64,000 nt of DNA, taken from Nitrospira sp. Lineage in GTDB: Bacteria; Nitrospirota; Nitrospiria; Nitrospirales; Nitrospiraceae. Location: positions 83,516 through 147,515 of the forward strand of contig JALHMZ010000001.1 in NCBI GenBank assembly GCA_022843785.1, given 5' to 3'. Shown here in pieces: positions 9,574 to 28,715 of the stretch. Below the pieces are notes generated by a model. It was not told the origin of the DNA, ran no database searches, and worked only from the letters and a program-made list of their open reading frames with translations. Position numbers and translations under genes: made by a program. Positions within the stretch are counted from its first letter, which is position 1; each line of letters starts with the position of its first letter.

Positions 9574-10447
9574 GTCGTTCCTCCCCCGCCCACCGTCCGG
9601 GATTAAATACAATCGGGCGGATGTTGTTATCCACAAGGACCACGGCCCCCTCTGTCCGCTGGGGTCTGGCTACAACGGAGACCTGCGCCGCAGGCACCAC
9701 CAGCCGGGCCAGGAGCAGGGCGGCCGTATCCTGTCCCGTTGCATGCTCCACCAACGGAGCCAGTTTGCCGTCGAGTTCCTGCCACTGAGTCCCTTCCCGC
9801 CACGCCCCAAATACTGTCTGCCGGGCCGTATCCGCGCGTTCTGCCGGATCGGCGATTCCCGACACGTCCGGCCATCGATTGACCGGAGCCGGTGGATCCG
9901 CCTCCTTCCGGATAACCAATGTCACGGCGTATCCGTCCCGTATCCGCGAGGGGACGACCGGATCCAATGCTTCATAGGGCCCTGAGGCAAACGCCGGAGT
10001 TTTCCCTCGTTCACACGCGACAAACGTCAGGAATACATCGACCACCACACCGTTGAACGGGACTCCATGGAACCCTTGAGCCAGATCATCGTCGGATTGA
10101 GCTTCGTACCAGCGATTCAGTCTGAGACAAACGGTTCTCGGCAATTCAATCAATCGCCCCATCCGGTCGATCGCCAAACCAGGATCTACCTTGATCCGTT
10201 CCGGACGCCCCTCCGGCATCGAAGAATCAACACCGGAAGCTACAGCCGGCTCCCACATCACATGCAATCCCGCGACCGTACCGCTCCCGTACAGATAGGC
10301 CAAGGCCCTGGCCAGACGTCCGCGGTGATAGGTCTGCTCGTCGAGAAAGTCCTCGGCATCGAGCAACACGCCGGTGGCATACCAGAGACGATCCTGGGAT
10401 TCGCCTTGGGCTTGCGCTTTCGCCAGGGGATCGAGTTCGAGACTCAT
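9566..10447 (-). CDS. CIS fibre-base-like protein (293 aa)
   Basis: RLWYATGVLLDAEDFLDEQTY...GSGTVAGLHV...VDPGLAIDRMGRLI, the same N-terminal module as the two downstream genes. Confidence 0.65.
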   Translation of the reverse strand: MSLELDPLAKAQAQGESQDRLWYATGVLLDAEDFLDEQTYHRGRLARALAYLYGSGTVAGLHVMWEPAVASGVDSSMPEGRPERIKVDPGLAIDRMGRLIELPRTVCLRLNRWYEAQSDDDLAQGFHGVPFNGVVVDVFLTFVACERGKTPAFASGPYEALDPVVPSRIRDGYAVTLVIRKEADPPAPVNRWPDVSGIADPAERADTARQTVFGAWREGTQWQELDGKLAPLVEHATGQDTAALLLARLVVPAAQVSVVARPQRTEGAVVLVDNNIRPIVFNPGRWAGEERHV

Positions 10448-10797
10448 TGCGTTCCTCCTCTTCGCGGACGTTTCCGGCCCTGCGGCTTCACGGCCCCCTT
10501 CAGACTGCGCACCGGTGTAGAGATCCCCGTCCCTATCGGCTGAATCGGTTCAATCGGACTTATCGGCCTGATCGGTACCACGGGATCGATCGGAATCACC
10601 GGACCGATCGGGCCGACGATTGGCGGCGTAACCGGAAGCCGCGAAATAATCACCGTCTGAACATCCGGGATGCTCCGATTTCCCTGTGCATCCACGACCA
10701 CCAACTGAAACCGGTGGGTCCCCACGGACAAGCCGGCATCGACGTCGATGAACGGCTGCTCCGTTGTGATCGTCCGGCCCGGAACAAACGTTGCCAC
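10444..10797 (-). CDS. Half-PKD/Ig-like protein with (P-I/V-x)n and basic tail
   Basis: VGTHRFQLVVVDAQGNRS.PD..TV matches the C-terminal half of PKD domains. Overlaps the downstream start (ATGA). Confidence 0.7.
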   Translation of the reverse strand: MATFVPGRTITTEQPFIDVDAGLSVGTHRFQLVVVDAQGNRSIPDVQTVIISRLPVTPPIVGPIGPVIPIDPVVPIRPISPIEPIQPIGTGISTPVRSLKGAVKPQGRKRPRRGGTQ

Positions 10798-10806
10798 AGA
10801 TAACTC

Positions 10807-11112
10807 CTATTCCACCAAGGTCCAAATGAAGCGCGCGACTTGCCCCGGAACGGGATCGGACGACCGCTGCCCGCTCATCCGGAAGGGCCGACCGAAAGGC
10901 ACGGTACGCGGTGCGTCCAACACCGCGGTCGGATTGTCTTCGTCACGCACGATGACCTCAACCCGGTCAGGAGCCGAACGGTTCCCTGAATCATCGACGA
11001 CTTCCAATTGAAAGATGTGCCGGCCGACGGACAACGGCCGATTCGGCGTCACATCCACTGAAATCACATTCTCCGCTGTCTCAATCGGGACACCTGCCTC
11101 AAAAATTGCCAT
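10807..11112 (-). CDS. Permuted/split PKD-like protein (second half followed by first half)
   Basis: GRHIFQLEVVDDSGNRSAPDRVEV followed by PTAVLDAP.TV..G..F.MSG..SSDP...FIWT. RBS GGAAGAGG. Confidence 0.75.
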   Translation of the reverse strand: MAIFEAGVPIETAENVISVDVTPNRPLSVGRHIFQLEVVDDSGNRSAPDRVEVIVRDEDNPTAVLDAPRTVPFGRPFRMSGQRSSDPVPGQVARFIWTLVE

Positions 11113-11152
11113 GGCCTCTTCCTTTCGTCTGAATGAGTCGCACGATTTCTAT

Positions 11153-13672
11153 TTAGGCTAACCACTCCCACACGTACCGAACGAGGCGGCGGCCCTCGGC
11201 CGCCCGCGATCCTCGCGCGTCCAGCTGAAACGACCGGCCGAATCCGACGGTCTGCTCATCGCCGGCCTCGGCCACAGGAGGGCCGGATACTGTCGTCGGC
11301 ACAACCTGGGCCAGGGTGTCCAGTCGTGGATCGAGGCTCGGACTATGTACCAGCACATCGCGCCGCCCCAAACGCGAGCGCCCGACACGAACGGGACGCA
11401 CTGGTTGAGATGACCCCAGATAGGTATCGACGCCGACCAACGAGGCCGCACCGACAAGAAACGGTTCCGAAGCCGTCACCACCCGCACCGCCACATGCGC
11501 AGGAGATTCCAGATTCACGATGCGCCTGATCAAGCCCACCTCTTGCGGCTCAACCTGCTGATGCACCAGCACTGTGGCACGAAAAACCAACCGATCGAGG
11601 AAGCCCTCGACCGCCCGTTCTTCCCGCGCCGTAAGATCGAGCTCCGACGCAAACAGCGCCAAAAACTCTCGGCGTTCTTCCTGTCCCAGAAATAACGAGT
11701 CACCCACAAACGAGTTGCCGCCGACCACCAGCCCGCCCAAGAGCGAATCGTCTTCGTCCGCGAAATCGCCGCCCAGAATGGTCCCCATGGTTCGACGTAG
11801 CCGGTAATCTTCCAACACGACGATTTCGCCGCTCGCTACCGCGCCGCCGGTGGCGATGTCGAGCGCCAGCTTGAGGCCTTCCAGCGTCCCGCGTTTGCGA
11901 TAGAGCTCAGGAGCGGATGCGAGGAACCGGCGACGGCGGGCACCGGGAAAGGCCGGATCGAACGACACCCCGATCCAACTCCCGAGCCATTCCAGCGCTT
12001 CATCTGGAGTCGTTCGCGGATCGGTCAGAAGGTAGGCCGACGCAATCCGATCCTCGATAGGCGTCAACACACCTTCCATGTTGTCCAGAAACCGCTCAAG
12101 GAAATCGGATGGGGTCGCAGACTGCCCGGGCGCAAGCAACGTCTCCGCTTCATCCCCATACCTCGTCTCGTGATAGAGCTCCGGCAAATACCGGTCTCTA
12201 TAAGAGAACCGCGACGCATACGTTCGCACCGCCGCCACTTCCGGCGTCGTCCGGCCATTGCCGCTGAGCGTGACACGCACCCAGCAGTACCGCCCTTTCA
12301 CTTGCGTAACAGGACGATGCCCGCGTTGAATCAGCACCGTGAAAAGCCCTGCGCGATCCCGCACCAAGGGACAATTCAGCAGCCCGGGATAGAACGGAAC
12401 CTCCGACGCGCTGGAGACCCACGCTCCTTGTGGAACAGGTCCCTGCGCCACCATCGGCTGCCCAAAATAGTGGGGATGCCACGCGTCCTCGGATACGGGC
12501 GGCACCGCCTCCTCGCTGGCCGCCACGGCGATCACGACCGAACTATCCGGAGGGATCTCCGCTTCGAGATAGAGCCGATGCCATACGGTCTGCGAAGACC
12601 CGCTGTCGATCAGTATCGCATTCATGGCCTGCCCTTTCGTCGCAAAGGAGGGAAGCGAAAGGGCATGCAGTCCGGCGGATCCATCCACAGTTGGATAATG
12701 CGGTGGATCATTGAGCGTATGCAGAAACGGCCCGCCGGTATAGTCGGTCAAGGGGTACAAATCGCCGACCGGCTCTGCAACAAAGCCGGTCGTTCCTGAA
12801 ACCGGCTCAATCGGCATGGGGTAGACAAGGGCTTCACCCGGCACACCGATAACCAGCACAGCCAGCCGATCAAACCCGACCCATGCCACACTATAGGGAC
12901 GGCCGGCCCCCTGCAGCATGATCGCGGGGCCACGCCATCCGGTGGAATCGAGTAAACGGACGCGGGCTCCTCCTCCGGAGACCCAGATCAAGACTGCCAC
13001 GACCCCGTCGGCTCGACAGGCCAGCGCAACCGGCTGTTCATCAGATGCAAAGATAATCTGCGAGGCATCGAACAGATGCGGAGGATACGGATTCTCTGAA
13101 CAGGGTCGAACGACGTCCGGATCGTAGGGAGCAGAGGGTCGATCCGGAAACGGCAATCCCCTCACCCGACCGATCTTGCGTCGGACTCGATCCAGAACCC
13201 AGACCCCTCCGGAAGGATCCGCGGATAGCCGCCACGCAGTCCCTTCCGCCGACTCCAGCACCACCTGCGCCCATCGATCACGCGTGTCATGCAACAGGAT
13301 GCGGTCGCCCAACGCGACATACAACACATCGTCATACCCCATCGCGATGTCGGACGGAACCTGCCCGGTCGACATTGGAAGAACCGGGAACCGTCCGGGT
13401 CTGGCACCAGTCGCAACTATGGCCTGCGCCGTCGCATCCCACGATGCACGCATGCCGAATTGGTCCATCGCATCCGGCACAGACTCTAAGCGGGACAAGG
13501 CTTGGGCCTCCACCACCGCCGCTTCCATATCACTGACAACGGGGATCGCTCGCCGCCCCGCCAGCCGGAAGCGTCGGCGCACCGTGTCATACGTCAGCGC
13601 CGGTGGATCTCCTTCGATCCGCCATTGATGCGCATCGGCGAGCAACCAGTGTTTGAGTCCATTGGCGTCCAT
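11153..13672 (-). CDS. Baseplate wedge protein with phage tail protein I domain (Afp12-like), N-terminal propeller-like region and C-terminal half-PKD
   Basis: RYLPELY...FLERFLDNMEG...LTDPRTTPDEALEWLGSWIG...ELYRKRGTLEGL is the tail-I domain pattern. Confidence 0.8.
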   Translation of the reverse strand: MDANGLKHWLLADAHQWRIEGDPPALTYDTVRRRFRLAGRRAIPVVSDMEAAVVEAQALSRLESVPDAMDQFGMRASWDATAQAIVATGARPGRFPVLPMSTGQVPSDIAMGYDDVLYVALGDRILLHDTRDRWAQVVLESAEGTAWRLSADPSGGVWVLDRVRRKIGRVRGLPFPDRPSAPYDPDVVRPCSENPYPPHLFDASQIIFASDEQPVALACRADGVVAVLIWVSGGGARVRLLDSTGWRGPAIMLQGAGRPYSVAWVGFDRLAVLVIGVPGEALVYPMPIEPVSGTTGFVAEPVGDLYPLTDYTGGPFLHTLNDPPHYPTVDGSAGLHALSLPSFATKGQAMNAILIDSGSSQTVWHRLYLEAEIPPDSSVVIAVAASEEAVPPVSEDAWHPHYFGQPMVAQGPVPQGAWVSSASEVPFYPGLLNCPLVRDRAGLFTVLIQRGHRPVTQVKGRYCWVRVTLSGNGRTTPEVAAVRTYASRFSYRDRYLPELYHETRYGDEAETLLAPGQSATPSDFLERFLDNMEGVLTPIEDRIASAYLLTDPRTTPDEALEWLGSWIGVSFDPAFPGARRRRFLASAPELYRKRGTLEGLKLALDIATGGAVASGEIVVLEDYRLRRTMGTILGGDFADEDDSLLGGLVVGGNSFVGDSLFLGQEERREFLALFASELDLTAREERAVEGFLDRLVFRATVLVHQQVEPQEVGLIRRIVNLESPAHVAVRVVTASEPFLVGAASLVGVDTYLGSSQPVRPVRVGRSRLGRRDVLVHSPSLDPRLDTLAQVVPTTVSGPPVAEAGDEQTVGFGRSFQLDARGSRAAEGRRLVRYVWEWLA

Positions 13673-21528: not shown

Positions 21529-23100
21529 TCACGCGACGACGCCATCGGAAGACAACAGGGACACCTGCCCACCCTCATGCAATCCCAGCACAACCGTAAT
21601 CCGTTCAATCGGCGCGGACGCCTGAAACTGCACCGTGACGATCACGCGTCCTGCGTCCAAATCCTGTTGGCTCATCGTGCTGCGATCGCACCGAACCTGA
21701 AAGGCCTCGTCCGGTGTGACACCACGCAAGGCCCCGTCCTGAAACAGCCCGACCAGCAACCGTTGTAACCGCTCCCGGATCAGCCCCCACAGCGCTTCAC
21801 CCGACGGCTCAAACAGCAGGTCCTCGCCTGCCAGACGCGCCGCCCGCACAAGGGCCGTGACAAGGCGATTGACACAGGCCGGTCGGTACCCTTCATCGAG
21901 ACTAGTCGTGACATCGGACAGCAAAACAAACCCTCTGGGTATTCGCCCGAGAATCGACACCCGCTCCGCCATCGACCGCCGACGAGTACCCTGCCGACCC
22001 GCATGACCGGCCGGCCGTTCGAACTGTTCCCGCCCCCACCCCGGCCATACATCCGTAACCTCGACGAGCGGCAACCCGGCGGCGCTGTGGAAACTTCCTC
22101 GCATGAGCGCATTTCTCGCCAACAATCCGGCCAGCACTCCATCCGGACTTTCCAACCCCTCGGGAAGCAGGTTGGATGCGGATGTCCGCACCCAGGGAAA
22201 CGCAAGTTGAACGAACGCGCTCGCCACTCCGGGCCGAACGGACTCCGTCAATCCGGCATCAAACACACCGTCGCCCTGACGGCTCAACCAGCCATGATAA
22301 TCCCGTTCAAGCTCGGTCCCGGCTTTCGGCAGCGGCAACGCCGCCACAAGCTGGACTTCTCGTCGGCGTCCAGCCAGCATGCCGCCCACGAGATTCACCG
22401 CCGTGGCCCACTCGCCTGCAGCAGCTGCATCACACCGTGGGGCACTGCCCCATCGCACGGGGTCATCGGCCGCGGGATCAGCCGCTTCCGTGCCGCACTC
22501 GACGAACTCTTCAGCTACGCGAGGCAACTCCCGCACCACAACCGGGTCTGGATCGACGGCAAAAGCTTCGGCAAGATCCGGCAGACAAAGATAGGAGACC
22601 TCAGGCAATCCGAAGATATGTCCGACCCCCTGCCAACTCGTCCTGGCCAACGGGGTACAACTCACTTGCCCGGTCGACCATCCCGGAATCAGTTCATCCA
22701 CCCGCGCCAGCCGGGCCACACGAGAAAACCCGTACTCCCAGGGATTCCCTACCCGGACCACATAACATTTGCGGCCGCCTTGTGAAAAAAACGACCGGAC
22801 TGCTGCGCCAAGATAGGTGATCCCTCCAGATCCGTTTGTACGGGAGTCCCAACGGAACAACCGATTGAAGAGCTCCCACGAATCGATCGGAATCGGAATG
22901 TCGTCCAACGCGTCGGGGTCGAACCCCGGCCTCCCAAGCTGCGCAGCAGTCCATCCGTATTCACTCATCCACTCACGGAGAAAGGGGGGCAGCCCAGCCC
23001 CCTGACGCCTGGCGACAAAGCCGACAAAGCATGCGATATCGGCCCGATTGGGATCGACGGTGGCAACCGGAGCCTGTTCCTCAAACTGAATTCCGTTCAT
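21529..23100 (-). CDS. Tail sheath protein 2 (divergent)
   Basis: RADIACFVG, AVRSFFSQGGRKCYVVRVG and C-terminal GAL.G.TPDEAFQVRCDRSTM.QQDLDAGRVI. Confidence 0.85.
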   Translation of the reverse strand: MNGIQFEEQAPVATVDPNRADIACFVGFVARRQGAGLPPFLREWMSEYGWTAAQLGRPGFDPDALDDIPIPIDSWELFNRLFRWDSRTNGSGGITYLGAAVRSFFSQGGRKCYVVRVGNPWEYGFSRVARLARVDELIPGWSTGQVSCTPLARTSWQGVGHIFGLPEVSYLCLPDLAEAFAVDPDPVVVRELPRVAEEFVECGTEAADPAADDPVRWGSAPRCDAAAAGEWATAVNLVGGMLAGRRREVQLVAALPLPKAGTELERDYHGWLSRQGDGVFDAGLTESVRPGVASAFVQLAFPWVRTSASNLLPEGLESPDGVLAGLLARNALMRGSFHSAAGLPLVEVTDVWPGWGREQFERPAGHAGRQGTRRRSMAERVSILGRIPRGFVLLSDVTTSLDEGYRPACVNRLVTALVRAARLAGEDLLFEPSGEALWGLIRERLQRLLVGLFQDGALRGVTPDEAFQVRCDRSTMSQQDLDAGRVIVTVQFQASAPIERITVVLGLHEGGQVSLLSSDGVVA

Positions 23101-23109
23101 GGCGTGTCA

Positions 23110-23559
23110 CTAGGCCACCTGTTCAAATTCCAATCCTTCAACCGACAACACTAATTCCTCCATCGCCACGTCTCCTCCGCCCTTCGCAGCTAGAGTCGGA
23201 CCGGCATACTTCATCGGAAACACGCGTGACAGCGACCAGGCCATGACCGGATTGCGCGCCTCATCCAGCATCGTGACCACCACAGTCCGCTTGGCGGAGG
23301 GGCCGTTATGCCGGACTTCGTTCACCCAGGCCCACAAGTCGGTGGAATTGACGATACCCCGCTTCAAGGTGACGTCGGAGACCTTGTGCATCCCCGGCAC
23401 TTTGCGGACATGGTTTTCTTTCTCGTTGCCATTCCGATACTCTGCCACCGTGATGTCCGTACTCAAGCCGGACACGTCGGAAAATCCGCCGAAGGCCTCT
23501 TGTCCGTCGATGTTCACGATGAAATTGAATGCCCCGTAGGGGGTCGTACGTGCTGCCAT
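23110..23559 (-). CDS. Tail tube protein 1 (T4 gp19-like)
   Basis: PYGAFNFIV..GFSDVSGL..EYRNGN...RKVPG..K..DVTLKRG...P.KY.GPTL.A. Confidence 0.95.
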   Translation of the reverse strand: MAARTTPYGAFNFIVNIDGQEAFGGFSDVSGLSTDITVAEYRNGNEKENHVRKVPGMHKVSDVTLKRGIVNSTDLWAWVNEVRHNGPSAKRTVVVTMLDEARNPVMAWSLSRVFPMKYAGPTLAAKGGGDVAMEELVLSVEGLEFEQVA

Positions 23560-23577
23560 AGTGACTCCTCCTCCCGA

Positions 23578-25287
23578 TTAGTTTCGCTCGTCCGCGGTCT
23601 TTTGGCCGATGCGGAAGATCACGAACTCCGCCGGTTTCAACACGGCAATACCGACCAGACAGATCAAGCGTCCATTATCCAGATCGTTCTGCGTCATGGT
23701 GCTACGGTCGCACCGAACGAAGAATGCTTCCTTCGCGGATGCGCCCAACAACGCGCCATTCACCCACTCGTTGTAGAGAAACGCCGACACCGTTTCACGG
23801 ACATTGGCCCAGAGCCGCTCGCCGTTCGGTTCGAATACCGCCCATTGCGTCCCCCGGTCGATGGACGCTTCGAGGTAATTCATATAGCGGCGCACATTGA
23901 CGTACTTCCACTCAGGGTCGGAACTGACCGTCCGCGCTCCCCACACCCGATAACCGCGCCCGCTGAGATACCGCAGGCAGTTAACGCCGAGCGGGTTGAG
24001 AACCTCCTGCTCGGCAAAGTTCACGTCTCGCTCGAAGCGCAAAGCGCCGCGCACCACTTCGTTCGCCGGAGCCTTATGGACGCCCCGCTCGACATCGTTG
24101 CGCGCATAGACGCCGCAGACAAATCCGGACGGTGGCAGCGCAAGTTCGCGCGGCACACTGGCATCCCCTGCACGCGCCAATGGATTGCTGACGACCACCC
24201 ACGGGTAGTACAGAGCAGCATACTTCGAATCAACGCGCCCCCTGATCTCCCGCGCTTCGGAGACCGCTTTGTCGGCTGGCGTATCCAACACGGCAATGCG
24301 ATAGGCCCGAGCACGCTCCGCATGGCTGATCAACGCGCCCAGAATACCCTGCGCATCGCCATACGCCGAAGAACCCGGCGCAGCCACGATCGAGAGATCC
24401 TCGATCTTTTCAAACTCCCTGAGCCCCGCCTCATAGGCTGTCTGGTTCGGAGCAGTGCCGTCGCTGCCGTTCCCCAGCGTCTGAGACCAGACATCGGCAG
24501 TGCCAAAAAGCCCGGCCCGCAGATCGAACGCGGTAACCGCCGACCCGATCTCGACGGCCAACCACTGTTCCAACGCATCGCTTCGTCGGGAAGGCGTGGC
24601 TGAAAAGACGTTTCCGATCCAGCGCGGATGTGAACGGTCGAACCCGAGGTCATCGAAACCGGCTGTATGCCCATCTCCATCCACCGCCACGACCGACAGA
24701 CTGATGAAATCAGCGGTGCCGTTGGGGGCCGCCGTATCAGCCAGGCCGCTCAGATCAAGCGTATTCGCCGACGAATCAACCCACGTACCATTCAGCTTGA
24801 CATGAAACACCGTGCCCGCGCCGGAGCCGGATCGGACCATCGCTCCGGACGGTGCGGCATTCATCGTGCGCTTCGTGGCCGGTGCGGTTTGCAGCCGAAC
24901 CACGACCTGTCCGTTGCCTGCTTGACCGGGAAACCGGGCCACAAACCGCGCACGGCGCGTGGGATCGGCATTGGCCACCATGTCGGGCGAGTTGGCCAAA
25001 CCGCCGCTACCGGTATAGGTACGCGAAACATAGAGACGCGCCCCCCCGTTATCGAAGTAGGCCCGGACCGAATGGGCGAGGAAGTTGGTGCCGTATTCCA
25101 GGTTATCCAGCCCGCCATAAATTCGCTCGAAATCCCCGAAGCTGGTGATCAGCTCAGGAGTGCCTCCCACAGGCCCTTTCCGCGTCGGGCCGACGAAACC
25201 GGTTGTGCTGGTGCCAACCCCCTCGATGGACTTGGCACGAAAGCTTGTTTCTTCGACATAGACTCCTGGTGCGAGATATTCTGGCAC
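23578..25287 (-). CDS. Tail sheath protein 1
   Basis: Starts at GTG 25287 with PEYLAPGVYVEE after GGAGGAG. Motifs YAALYYPW, PPSG.V.G.YAR.D..RGVHKAPANE and WAVFEPN...PAEFVIFRI. Confidence 0.96.
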   Translation of the reverse strand: MPEYLAPGVYVEETSFRAKSIEGVGTSTTGFVGPTRKGPVGGTPELITSFGDFERIYGGLDNLEYGTNFLAHSVRAYFDNGGARLYVSRTYTGSGGLANSPDMVANADPTRRARFVARFPGQAGNGQVVVRLQTAPATKRTMNAAPSGAMVRSGSGAGTVFHVKLNGTWVDSSANTLDLSGLADTAAPNGTADFISLSVVAVDGDGHTAGFDDLGFDRSHPRWIGNVFSATPSRRSDALEQWLAVEIGSAVTAFDLRAGLFGTADVWSQTLGNGSDGTAPNQTAYEAGLREFEKIEDLSIVAAPGSSAYGDAQGILGALISHAERARAYRIAVLDTPADKAVSEAREIRGRVDSKYAALYYPWVVVSNPLARAGDASVPRELALPPSGFVCGVYARNDVERGVHKAPANEVVRGALRFERDVNFAEQEVLNPLGVNCLRYLSGRGYRVWGARTVSSDPEWKYVNVRRYMNYLEASIDRGTQWAVFEPNGERLWANVRETVSAFLYNEWVNGALLGASAKEAFFVRCDRSTMTQNDLDNGRLICLVGIAVLKPAEFVIFRIGQKTADERN

Positions 25288-25322
25288 GATGCTCCTCCCT
25301 TCCCATTCCGACTGCACACCCT

Positions 25323-26072
25323 CTAGGGGATTGCGACAGTCACTCGGCACGCCTCTGTTCGTCCTGATGCCAACTTCATCGTTCGCTGTCCATTCGGCAA
25401 AATGCCTCGATTCGCTTCAAGTGCGTCCGGATCCGGCATATCGCCTGCATCAGGATCCACCACCACCTCAACTCGAACATCTACTTCGGTCCCTATCACC
25501 GGCCCCGAAGAAGCCTCCCATGTCGTCACGGGAATGCCGGACACCGCGACCAAAGCTTCCCCACGTGGATCAGACAACCCGCGCGCCAGCACCTGTCCGT
25601 CGCTTGTACGCAACACGCGGATCAATGCACCGCCCAAACCACGGCCGTCCTCCTCGCGAACAACGGTTGCCCGAATGACCGCCCATGCGGAAGAGATCGG
25701 AGCCGATGCACTCAGATACATCCGGCTCTCGATAGGCTGAAACACGGACTCGCCATGTCCGGCTCGAACCGGGTCAGGATCACGTGGAAGTCGGAGAGTG
25801 TGACGGCGAGGCAGATAGGTTGCTCCCATATCACGCACCTCAACGACCGCGCTCAAACTCCCGACGGGTGGAGCAGCAGGAGGATTCGACAGCACGTCCT
25901 GATGCCGCTCAAGGCCTGGCATCTCCATCAGCACGTGCAGCCCTCGGCGATTGCGGACCCATACCGTTCCCGCCCCCCTGACCGATAGGGGTGAAAGAAT
26001 CGGCTGTCCAGTGACGCCATCTACGATGCGCAACGCAGCAAGTACCCGTCTGGTGAGGCTGTCAAGAATCAT
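25323..26072 (-). CDS. Hypothetical CIS protein with carboxypeptidase-regulatory-like beta domain (possible cap adaptor)
   Basis: Coupled to DUF4255 (ATGA overlap). Beta-rich ..GALIRV..GQVLARGLSDPRGEALV segment. Confidence 0.55.
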   Translation of the reverse strand: MILDSLTRRVLAALRIVDGVTGQPILSPLSVRGAGTVWVRNRRGLHVLMEMPGLERHQDVLSNPPAAPPVGSLSAVVEVRDMGATYLPRRHTLRLPRDPDPVRAGHGESVFQPIESRMYLSASAPISSAWAVIRATVVREEDGRGLGGALIRVLRTSDGQVLARGLSDPRGEALVAVSGIPVTTWEASSGPVIGTEVDVRVEVVVDPDAGDMPDPDALEANRGILPNGQRTMKLASGRTEACRVTVAIP

Positions 26073-27256: not shown

Positions 27257-28249
27257 CTAGGAAAACTGGCTTCGGTGCAATTGGTGCTTCGTGAGGAGTC
27301 GCTGGAAGGATCGCCGTTCTTTACCAGCAGCTTTGGCGGCGTGTGTAATATTGCCGCGATGTACTCTGAGCAGGTTGATAAGGTAGGTCCTTTCGAATTC
27401 CTGCATGGCAGTCATTTTTGCCTGACTCAATGTGCCGGAGGTTGTCTCAGCAACCATGGCTCCGGCCAATTCCACATGATAGGTCTCGATCGTTCCTCCT
27501 CCGCTATGGAGCACAGCGCGTTGCAATACGCCTTCCAGCTCCCGGATATTACCGGGCCAACTATGCGCCATCAGCTTGTGCAGCGCCTCCTCTGAAACCG
27601 ATACTGGTCCATAGCCATGAACCCGCCCATAGTGTTCTGCAAAATGCGCCGCCAACAGGGGAAGATCTCCAAACCGGTAACGTAACGGCGGAATAGTGAC
27701 CGACAACACATGCAATCGATAAAATAAGTCCTCTCGAAACCTCTTCTCCTGTACCAACACCAACAGGTCGGCATTCGATGCCACCACCACCCGAACATCA
27801 GCATAGGCGAACTTTGCACAACCGACAGGGCGGTATTCTCCCCGCTGAAGAAACCGAAGCAGCTTGGCCTGAGCCGGAAAACTCAGCGCATCGATTTCAT
27901 CAAGAAACAACGTGCCCCCGTGCGCTTCCGCCACCAAACCTCTTTCTGCTGAGGCCGCGTCCGTATAGGCTCCTTTGCTATGGCCAAAGAGCTCGTTCTC
28001 GATCAACGCATCCGGCAACGCTCCGCAATTTACCGGGATAAAGGGCTGTCCGCGTCTCACGCCGTGATAGTGGATTGCGCGTGCAAACAGCTCTTTACCA
28101 GTGCCCGTTTCCCCCGTAATCAAGACGGTCGCACCTGTTCCTGCAAAGAGCTTGATTTTCTCAAGCGTGCGGAGAAATACCTCGCTTTCGCCGACTAAGG
28201 TGTCGAAGTGTATGCGCGGGGACAGATCCCGGCTCTCAACATCGGGCAT
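27257..28249 (-). CDS. Sigma54-dependent transcriptional activator (bEBP) lacking an N-terminal sensory domain
   Basis: GETGTGKE, ELFGH.KGAYTDA (GAFTGA variant), FLDEI, REDLFYRL, WPGNIREL and a C-terminal Fis-type HTH. An in-frame stop upstream excludes an N-terminal extension. Confidence 0.92.
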   Translation of the reverse strand: MPDVESRDLSPRIHFDTLVGESEVFLRTLEKIKLFAGTGATVLITGETGTGKELFARAIHYHGVRRGQPFIPVNCGALPDALIENELFGHSKGAYTDAASAERGLVAEAHGGTLFLDEIDALSFPAQAKLLRFLQRGEYRPVGCAKFAYADVRVVVASNADLLVLVQEKRFREDLFYRLHVLSVTIPPLRYRFGDLPLLAAHFAEHYGRVHGYGPVSVSEEALHKLMAHSWPGNIRELEGVLQRAVLHSGGGTIETYHVELAGAMVAETTSGTLSQAKMTAMQEFERTYLINLLRVHRGNITHAAKAAGKERRSFQRLLTKHQLHRSQFS

Positions 28250-28715
28250 TCGCACCCCTCCATCCAAGACCCGTCAATATCCCGACTCCGTCATCCATCT
28301 CACGCCCGGTCGTCTAAGTAATTCCTCGCATGATAGACCGCAGGGTACAAAATTCTCTTGCGAAGGTCCAGCCAGTATATCTTGACGTATCGTAGCAGGC
28401 TCCTCCTACCGGTAGTGGATTTCAACCTCCAGGCCAAAAGACTCTGTGATGCGTCGAATCTTACGCCCTACCAGCTGTACGGCCTGGATCATTGTTCCCA
28501 AGACAGACGTGACGGCACCGCATTGACTGAGGCGGCGATCAACATGGACCTTGTCACAAGAATCGGGCACCCTGCCAATCAAACTTCCACGGATCGCTGC
28601 AGCGCTATCATACTCAAGCACCTGGTGTTTACAGGAAGAACACGGTTCTCTGCGCGATCCCTTCTTGGATCGACACAAATACAGAAAAGGCAGGCAAGAA
28701 ATACGGTGGACGATG

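Follow-up and report, generated by a model that had tools for sequence, protein, structure and literature searches.

Adjacent genes of a Nitrospira contractile injection system encode proteins that probably join by completing each other's PKD domains

The DNA analysed here (the window) is a stretch of 64,000 nucleotides (nt) from Nitrospira sp. (contig JALHMZ010000001.1, positions 83,516 to 147,515), which carries on its minus strand, between positions 709 and 26653, a complete contractile injection system cluster. In this cluster the baseplate wedge protein of 839 amino acids (aa) and the products of two small genes of 101 and 117 aa are three separate polypeptides that, in our assessment, probably join end to end by completing each other's PKD domains. 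Specifically, the wedge protein (the anchor) ends with the first half of a PKD domain (strands A-B-C), the 101-aa protein (the extender) consists of a second half (strands C'-E-F-G) followed by a new first half, and the 117-aa protein (the cap) starts with a second half and continues as a tail, such that two PKD/immunoglobulin (Ig)-like domains, each made of two chains, would connect the three proteins. An initial annotation of the window had described this division of halves, and had proposed that the domains are completed in trans to give a fibre on the baseplate. Its description of each of the three genes is borne out by the Pfam and half-domain matches reported below, and completion of the PKD halves in trans is strongly supported by comparative and modelling evidence.

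The division is visible in the protein sequences themselves. The wedge protein ends with ...PPVAEAGDEQTVGFGRSFQLDARGSRAAEGRRLVRYVWEWLA, which corresponds to PKD strands A-B-C, and then stops at a TAA codon 3 residues past the Trp strand. The extender begins with a second half that contains ...VGRHIFQLEVVDDSGNRSAPDRVEVIVRD and runs straight into a new A-B-C segment (PTAVLDAP...FIWTLVE), which is followed by TAG, and the cap begins with its own strands C'-E-F-G (...VGTHRFQLVVVDAQGNRS...), followed by a Pro/Val/Ile-rich basic tail. As had been noted at the outset, both first halves stop just after the Trp strand; we find that they end 3–4 residues past the conserved Trp, and comparison with unsplit tandem-PKD relatives, the nearest of which are secreted proteins that are 42% identical (P0169 and P0171), places both cuts in the C-C' loop right after this strand. 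The N-termini MAIFEAG... and MATFVPG... contain no hydrophobic leader or signal peptide.

Searches against domain models give the same picture. When the genes are searched singly, all of the matches to PKD models in Pfam are partial (E = 0.0025–0.09) and no one polypeptide matches a whole model; residues 27–55 of the extender match positions 57–84 of the 84 positions of PF22352 (K319L-like_PKD), and residues 59–98 match positions 2–40 of the 85 positions of PF18911 (PKD_4). When the C-terminus of the wedge protein is joined to the N-terminus of the extender, PF22352 is matched over positions 1–84 of 84, with E = 8.5e-6 and 26.1 bits, the Pfam curated cut-off for this model being 27 bits. The chain obtained by reading through from the extender into the cap scores 27.6 bits against PF22352, and the C-terminus of the extender joined to the N-terminus of the extender matches a PKD model too, over positions 15–84. 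Profile hidden Markov models (HMMs) of the half-domains match each of the four halves separately (Table 1).

Table 1 Positions in the window of the three genes, of the PKD half-domains that they encode, and of the large genes downstream
Feature	Position	Strand	Basis or remark
Anchor: 839-aa baseplate wedge protein (Tail_P2_I, TssG-like adaptor)	11153..13672	(-)	Pfam PF09684, E = 1.5e-9
H1a: first half of PKD domain 1, strands A-B-C, wedge residues ~796-839	11156..11287	(-)	Half-domain HMM match
40-nt spacer with Shine-Dalgarno (SD) motif AAGGAAGAGG ahead of extender ATG	11113..11152	(-)	Direct reading
Extender: 101-aa gene	10807-11112	(-)	
H2b: second half of PKD domain 1, strands C'-E-F-G, extender residues 1-57	10942..11112	(-)	Half-domain HMM, E = 5e-26
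H1b: first half of PKD domain 2, strands A-B-C, extender residues 58-101	10810..10941	(-)	HMM, E = 7e-24
Extender TAG stop and 9-nt spacer	10798..10809	(-)	TAGGAG acts as SD motif for the cap GTG start
Cap: 117-aa gene	10444-10797	(-)	
H2c: second half of PKD domain 2, cap residues 1-52	10642..10797	(-)	HMM, E = 2e-11
Cap tail: Pro/Val/Ile-rich, basic C-terminus KPQGRKRPRRGGTQ	10447..10641	(-)	Predicted local distance difference test (pLDDT) below 50
293-, 537- and 1269-aa proteins with related N-terminal regions	4209..10447	(-)	BLAST, 25-34% identity; conserved gene order

The cut, and the layout of anchor, extender and cap around it, recur at other loci far more often than chance would allow. 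The extender family comprises 47 homologues in database clusters (48–95% identity), most of which are 101–108 aa long, and their ends are practically the same. For the wedge protein there are 1120 homologues at E < 1e-10; among the best 120 of these, whose C-terminal ends we inspected, about 115 end 0–7 residues after the first half and five are without the half, and neither a whole PKD domain nor a Pfam PKD annotation was found among the 120. A map made with the half-domain HMMs contains 26 loci, from at least eight phyla, in which a protein ending with a first half, a protein made of a second half and a first half, and a protein starting with a second half are encoded one after another, each with its own stop codon. 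These loci come from both isolates and metagenome-assembled genomes, in independent assemblies, and belong to Nitrospirota (Nitrospira), Acidobacteriota, Chloroflexota (Anaerolineae), Cyanobacteria (Cyanobium, Phormidesmis), Fibrobacterota, Desulfobacterota and Burkholderiales, the carriers in the last of these being Variovorax, Piscinibacter sakaiensis, Roseateles/Pelomonas and Rubrivivax. Cultured carriers exist, among them Piscinibacter (Ideonella) sakaiensis 201-F6 and isolates of Variovorax, Roseateles and Pelomonas. We found no extender homologue in GenBank phages; in IMG/VR two contigs match, both of them injection-system loci with all three parts. Pairwise ratios of non-synonymous to synonymous substitution rates (dN/dS) are 0.10–0.53 for the anchor half, the extender and the cap.

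These comparisons bear on the most trivial explanation of the split, that it was produced by frameshifts in sequencing or assembly, or by nonsense mutations in a dying gene. Breaks of this sort can be found: a region in a Gemmatimonadales long-read metagenome-assembled genome (L067, 5900–7800), which we had considered as a longer relay of half-domains, is best read as a tandem-PKD gene of the ordinary kind that frameshifts have interrupted at other, non-homologous positions, and provides a contrast case for the appearance of an artefactual split. Against such an origin in the present case stand the identical cut in about 115 wedge homologues and in the 26 three-part loci from independent assemblies and isolates, dN/dS values well below 1, and the conservation of start codons and SD motifs. 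We regard artefact or decay as already refuted and attach next to no probability to it.

The spacing and frames of the genes bear both on that explanation and on a second one, translational recoding, in which the wedge product, lengthened by read-through of a stop codon or by a programmed frameshift, would contain both PKD domains entire. Some structural proteins of phages do acquire Ig-like domains by programmed frameshifting, and in the window the extender and cap genes share a frame with only the TAG and 9 nt between them, a point that the initial annotation did not mention; the frames of anchor and extender coincide in 12 of 24 loci, which is near chance. The extender and the cap, however, share a frame in only 11 of 33 loci, the rate expected by chance, and since frame sharing elsewhere is at chance we take the in-frame TAG in the window to be a coincidence. 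Moreover, neighbouring genes are separated by anything from -23 to +369 nt, each of the three stop codons is in use, the extender is preceded by an SD motif and has its own start codon in 35 of 36 loci, the wedge and extender genes of the window lie in different frames 40 nt apart, and extender genes are also found without any upstream partner. Programmed frameshifting calls for a fixed frame relation together with a slippery site; what we find is chance frames, variable spacing and an SD motif and start codon that belong to the extender. Taken together, the varying frames, gaps and stop codons and the SD motif of the extender exclude sequencing frameshifts of a fused gene, which the initial annotation had named as a danger to its proposal, and also exclude recoding, which we consider very unlikely.

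Where the first half is present on the wedge protein, so are the two small genes. Twenty wedges with the half-domain all have both of them, and 3 wedges without it have neither (20/0 versus 0/3; Fisher exact p = 5.6e-4). Wedges P0135, P0096 and P0158 stop just before the first half, and the next gene is directly a gene of 285–302 aa; in those loci of module-less wedges whose DNA was available, the half-domain HMMs gave no match. Because the rest of the cluster is unchanged in module-less loci, the split-PKD module is an optional appendage and not an attachment device for the three large proteins (293, 537 and 1269 aa) encoded downstream, whose order is kept in all related loci with or without the module.

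Structure prediction indicates that halves from two of these genes can form a PKD domain when they are joined. All of our AlphaFold2 models are of single chains, and for the joint between extender and cap we modelled the in-frame read-through of the extender, the TAG codon and the cap, with nine equally in-frame relatives as the alignment. In this model residues ~60–157 form a complete seven-strand sandwich (pLDDT about 90) in which the first half of the extender is completed by the second half of the cap, and which superimposes on the PKD domain of ColG with template-modelling (TM) scores of 0.87–0.88 and root-mean-square deviations of 1.8–1.9 Å; the joined halves thus combine a match to a whole PKD model with the PKD sandwich fold. 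The first 57 residues of the same model form only an F-G hairpin, and the tail (residues 165–222) is disordered. The extender modelled by itself with a 54-sequence alignment (pLDDT 92.5, predicted TM score 0.70) has regular strands only in the F-G hairpin, and the long C strand, which is paired in the joined model, is unpaired. Comparison of the two models indicates that no strands form in the first half of the extender unless the second half of the cap is attached to it.

These models, together with the co-occurrence data, bear on the possibility that the halves do not complement each other across chains at all, and that the extender folds by itself, as a circular permutant or some other small fold, its PKD likeness being a relic. 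The local confidence of the lone model is indeed high. Nevertheless, a stable monomeric circularly permuted PKD domain, which the initial annotation had raised as one outcome at odds with its proposal, is not what AlphaFold2 predicts: beyond the hairpin the lone model contains no regular strands, and a Foldseek search with it returned no significant neighbour (best E = 0.5, with local matches of 27–30 residues; the top, non-significant match is 4GO6). The linker between strands G and A is ~4 residues long, which is that of a normal inter-domain linker and, given Ig topology, would be too short to fold the first half back. Self-folding also leaves unexplained both the 44-residue half on the wedge protein and the all-or-none co-occurrence of the parts, and we judge it improbable. 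We found no solved structure that contains an extender-like protein; the extender profile aligns across the domain boundary of ordinary tandem PKD proteins.

We favour joining by half-domain completion, which might proceed as follows. The last ~44 residues of the wedge protein (A-B-C) would be unable to fold alone, and the N-terminal half of the extender (C'-E-F-G) would dock on them, completing domain 1. The A-B-C segment at the C-terminus of the extender would be completed in turn by the N-terminal half of the cap, or by that of another extender, to give domain 2. The C-terminal part of the cap would then be displayed at the tip, in this locus as a disordered Pro-rich basic tail, and in others as PASTA repeats, a beta-propeller or a TIG domain. 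Because each of the two sheets of each sandwich would hold strands of both chains, the joint should be tight and stable though non-covalent. The outcome would be an optional thin appendage on each baseplate wedge and, if the baseplate contains six wedges, as the analogy with TssG suggests, there should be six such thin arms. The PASTA, propeller and TIG tips at other loci and the basic Pro-rich tail in the window suggest that the appendage is most likely a tether or an adhesion arm.

Several considerations weigh against this reading. The read-through chain that yields a complete sandwich is covalently linked, and thus speaks to the compatibility of the halves rather than to their assembly in trans; the match of the joined wedge and extender sequences falls 0.9 bit short of the Pfam curated cut-off; we infer the physical complex of the three proteins from sequence and from single-chain models, and what the appendage does solely from where it is located and which domains the caps carry in other loci. 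In addition, genomes that carry only an extender and a cap, or only an extender, leave one second half without a dedicated partner, so that the three-part scheme is not the whole story. On the other side are the conserved cut, the all-or-none presence of the parts, purifying selection, the predicted folding of the joined halves and the lack of such a fold in the model of the lone extender. Of the original proposal of completion in trans, the matching of the halves stands, and the two-chain complex is the step that has to be deduced from it.

The joint is present on anchors, and with caps, that differ from those of the window. At an Acidobacteria locus (L040) a 763-aa anchor combines a baseplate-wedge tail-fibre-network domain with five PASTA repeats, the first half coming last, and the cap consists of a second half and two PASTA repeats. 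In another Acidobacteria locus (L057) an anchor of ~313 aa has the first half at its end and the cap joins a second half to a YncE-like beta-propeller; at two Desulfobacterota loci (L042 and L049) the anchor, of 315 aa, again has the first half at its end and the caps are short (61 aa and about 70 aa), with the second half only; and in Fibrobacterota (L038) the anchor is broken by an apparent frameshift and the cap carries a second half and a TIG domain. The occurrence of the same joint on these other anchors and caps indicates that it is a general non-covalent connector. The placement of the structure "on the baseplate" in the initial annotation is accordingly too narrow, the same joint being found on other anchors and in genomes without an injection-system wedge gene.

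Across this range the halves fall into classes. Anchors of every kind carry one class of first half, nearer to that of the wedge protein than to that of the extender; in the first half of the extender a PTAV motif is invariant, and S-x-D stands in place of the S-x-A of anchors. In the cap, the second half (the H2c class) has an E-F loop that is always 4–5 residues shorter than that of the extender (H2b), across phyla. In the tails of caps from injection-system loci, composition is conserved and sequence is not. We also considered an N-terminal motif common to the 315-aa anchors and the 293-, 537- and 1269-aa proteins, which proved to be without statistical support (E = 0.1–0.6).

Some extenders (P0174, of 144 aa, P0177, P0179, P0187 and L071 1930–2331) have ~45 extra residues past their first half. 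Those of P0174 are similar to the C-C' loop and the C' and E strands (GAGGG...VVTVP...), a hint of a second cut point further along; the extension of the L071 extender is a Pro-rich basic tail, and the L071 cap is minimal. One further candidate, an 840-aa frame in a Nitrospirota genome (G349), is a secreted protein that contains a whole PKD domain and is unrelated.

Completion between chains can be elaborated in two ways, which differ in the number of extenders per arm. In the full model of the initial annotation the extender also joins to itself, and an Ig fibre of variable length is started by the wedge protein, built up of repeated extenders and ended by the cap; we see this as a serious possibility, though not as the probable outcome. 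Nine loci carry only an extender and a cap, and two to three carry only an extender, all of them outside injection-system loci and in unrelated neighbourhoods. Searches of six such genomes with family and anchor-specific profiles found no other first half, five of the six are without a wedge homologue, and the extender and cap genes concerned are under purifying selection (dN/dS 0.14–0.40). As no other first half was found in those genomes, the N-terminal half of the extender could be completed there only by another extender, which makes self-association plausible. A repeating unit would also require that an anchor is never paired directly with a cap and that the parts are never fused; indeed, no locus shows such a pairing and no lineage has dropped the extender, and natural fusions (a wedge protein that includes an entire PKD domain, or second, first and second halves in one chain) are absent from the best 120 wedges and from the extender relatives. 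A canonical SD motif is found ahead of the cap in only 11 of 33 loci and is thus rarer there than ahead of the extender, which would fit the production of more extender than cap, and the PKD match obtained when two extender ends are joined is likewise in keeping with self-joining. Against it, the class-specific signatures of the halves are conserved across phyla and suggest two dedicated joints rather than promiscuous ones, and the stoichiometry of contractile machines is normally fixed.

Should the extender join to itself, it would be a half-domain relay subunit that forms a head-to-tail polymer, which any protein ending in a first half might initiate and any protein starting with a second half might terminate. 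We tentatively suggest that such a polymer might be an Ig fibre that is assembled in the cytoplasm without a chaperone and whose length can be tuned. It might be used on the baseplates of injection machines and, in Burkholderiales and Alphaproteobacteria that are without these machines, as a free-standing system of two genes.

The second version is a 1:1:1 heterotrimer with two orthogonal joints, one between the anchor and the N-terminus of the extender and one between the C-terminus of the extender and the cap, and hence with exactly two PKD domains. Every locus that holds all three parts has exactly one extender gene, and this version would account for the class-specific signatures, for the anchor-class half borne by all of the unrelated kinds of anchor, and for the varied distal domains of the caps, which are like exchangeable tips. 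It leaves unexplained, however, both the extender-and-cap and the extender-only loci that are maintained by selection, and the lack of any fused lineage. We consider a fixed heterotrimer only slightly less likely than the self-joining extender; in it the split would serve ordered or conditional assembly or the exchange of tips.

The free-standing pairs of extender and cap (L047/L001, L050, L055, L056, L060 and L062–L066) belong to Burkholderiales, Dongiaceae and Rhodospirillales and are located after glmM or beside a gene for a zinc-ribbon membrane protein. Lone extender genes, with neither anchor nor cap nearby, are found in a Nitrospirota genome (G116; L085 3289–3594, minus strand) and in Roseateles puraquae (L064).

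By a Pfam scan of the window proteins, the cluster that surrounds the three genes contains, in a single operon-like block, the components of an Afp/PVC-like contractile injection system: a Pvc16-like cap, two sheath and two tube genes, a CIS_tube protein, a GPD hub and a spike, gp25, Baseplate_J (761 aa), the Tail_P2_I wedge adaptor and an AAA ATPase. The two sheath-like genes (590 and 523 aa) and the two gp19-type tube genes (149 and 159 aa) lie in tandem at 21529–25350 on the minus strand. A search of PDB sequences with the wedge protein returned as its sole match a short Streptomyces Cis12-like chain, 9GTP_E. The extender and cap genes sit between the wedge gene and the genes for the 293-, 537- and 1269-aa proteins, and the stop codon of the cap overlaps the start of the next gene (ATGA). 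These three large proteins have no match in Pfam, and in searches of PDB sequences the 293-aa protein had no match and the 537-aa protein had only a non-significant one (E = 0.47); they are probably paralogous fibre proteins of the injection system, of the TssK-like/eBAP3-5 type reported in PMC12923769. For the 537-aa open reading frame (8023–9636, minus strand) the listed start is a TTG codon that gives an overlap of ~70 nt with the end of the 293-aa gene, and because homologues align only from about residue 20–30 the real start is probably further downstream. The 537-aa protein (at 8023–8200, minus strand) and the cap (at 10447–10641) have similar Pro/Gly/Val/Ile-rich ends that are followed by a strongly basic C-terminus (RRTAPQKPRSRSTPRRKG and KPQGRKRPRRGGTQ, respectively). 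Directly upstream of the cluster (27257–28267, minus strand) is a gene for a sigma-54-dependent activator (Sigma54_activat and HTH_8), which may regulate it.

Incomplete Ig-like folds that are finished by a neighbouring subunit are familiar from the chaperone-usher pili (Fim, Pap and Caf1) and the type V pili, which assemble head to tail in the periplasm, with dedicated tip and terminator subunits and the help of a chaperone, by the donation of a single strand (G). The arrangement described here resembles these pili in its principle. It differs in that about half a domain is contributed by each chain (three strands against four), that the setting is a phage-tail-like machine with presumably cytoplasmic assembly, and that the fold is of the PKD type and the proteins are without signal peptides. 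Among the neighbouring genes scanned with Pfam there was no PapD-like chaperone or usher, and the proteins do not have the characteristics of donor-strand pilins. Non-covalent beta-sandwiches made of two chains are also known from the interdigitated Fn3 domain of HCF-1 SAS1 (PDB 4GO6) and from MG6 of complement C3, both of which arise from a cleaved folded precursor; in those proteins the cut is made after folding, whereas here separately encoded halves must meet, in a relay of three proteins. SpyTag/SpyCatcher (from CnaB2) is an engineered split Ig-like domain that reconstitutes spontaneously. It is man-made, asymmetric, one part being a tag of 13 residues, and held together by an isopeptide bond, whereas the present split is natural, near-symmetric and without an evident covalent lock. 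Tandem PKD proteins, such as KIAA0319L/AAVR, the collagenases ColG and ColH and the secreted bacterial arrays, belong to the same family and share its motifs, but they are single chains that begin with a first half and usually have a signal peptide, whereas here the chain is broken in the C-C' loop of two consecutive domains.

In the literature that we found, the term "split Ig-like domains" refers to intrachain cases, in lipin and in RTX adhesins. A phage paper on "chain-like fibers" (PMC13730344), which we considered as a precedent, describes beta-sheet augmentation onto a rope protein and not split domains. The closest setting is that of the extracellular contractile injection systems in a 2026 catalogue of fibres (PMC12923769), in which baseplates of the Tail_P2_I type have TssG-like adaptors that hold up to four fibres, some of which carry flexible chains of Ig/PKD modules; those fibres (eBAP3/eBAP5) are covalent and are attached through N-terminal attachment domains. 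The locus is of the same kind as that studied here, and the paper makes no mention of a split, of complementation or of the two small genes.

We found no published description of a half-domain relay in the literature that we searched, PMC12923769 included, and a relay of half-domains from adjacent genes, on phage-tail-like machines and as a general connector, appears to be undescribed. The finding explains hundreds of hypothetical proteins of ~100 aa, as well as the odd 44-residue tail of a large family of wedge proteins, which domain databases miss because each gene holds only half a domain. The use of one joint with different anchors and different tips (PASTA, propeller and TIG) looks like a natural plug and socket for the exchange of distal modules, and this bears on the targeting of these machines and on their re-engineering. 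The two apparently distinct classes of joint would provide small, genetically encodable, non-covalent protein connectors and, if it is true that the extender polymerises, it would form a new kind of self-assembling Ig filament.

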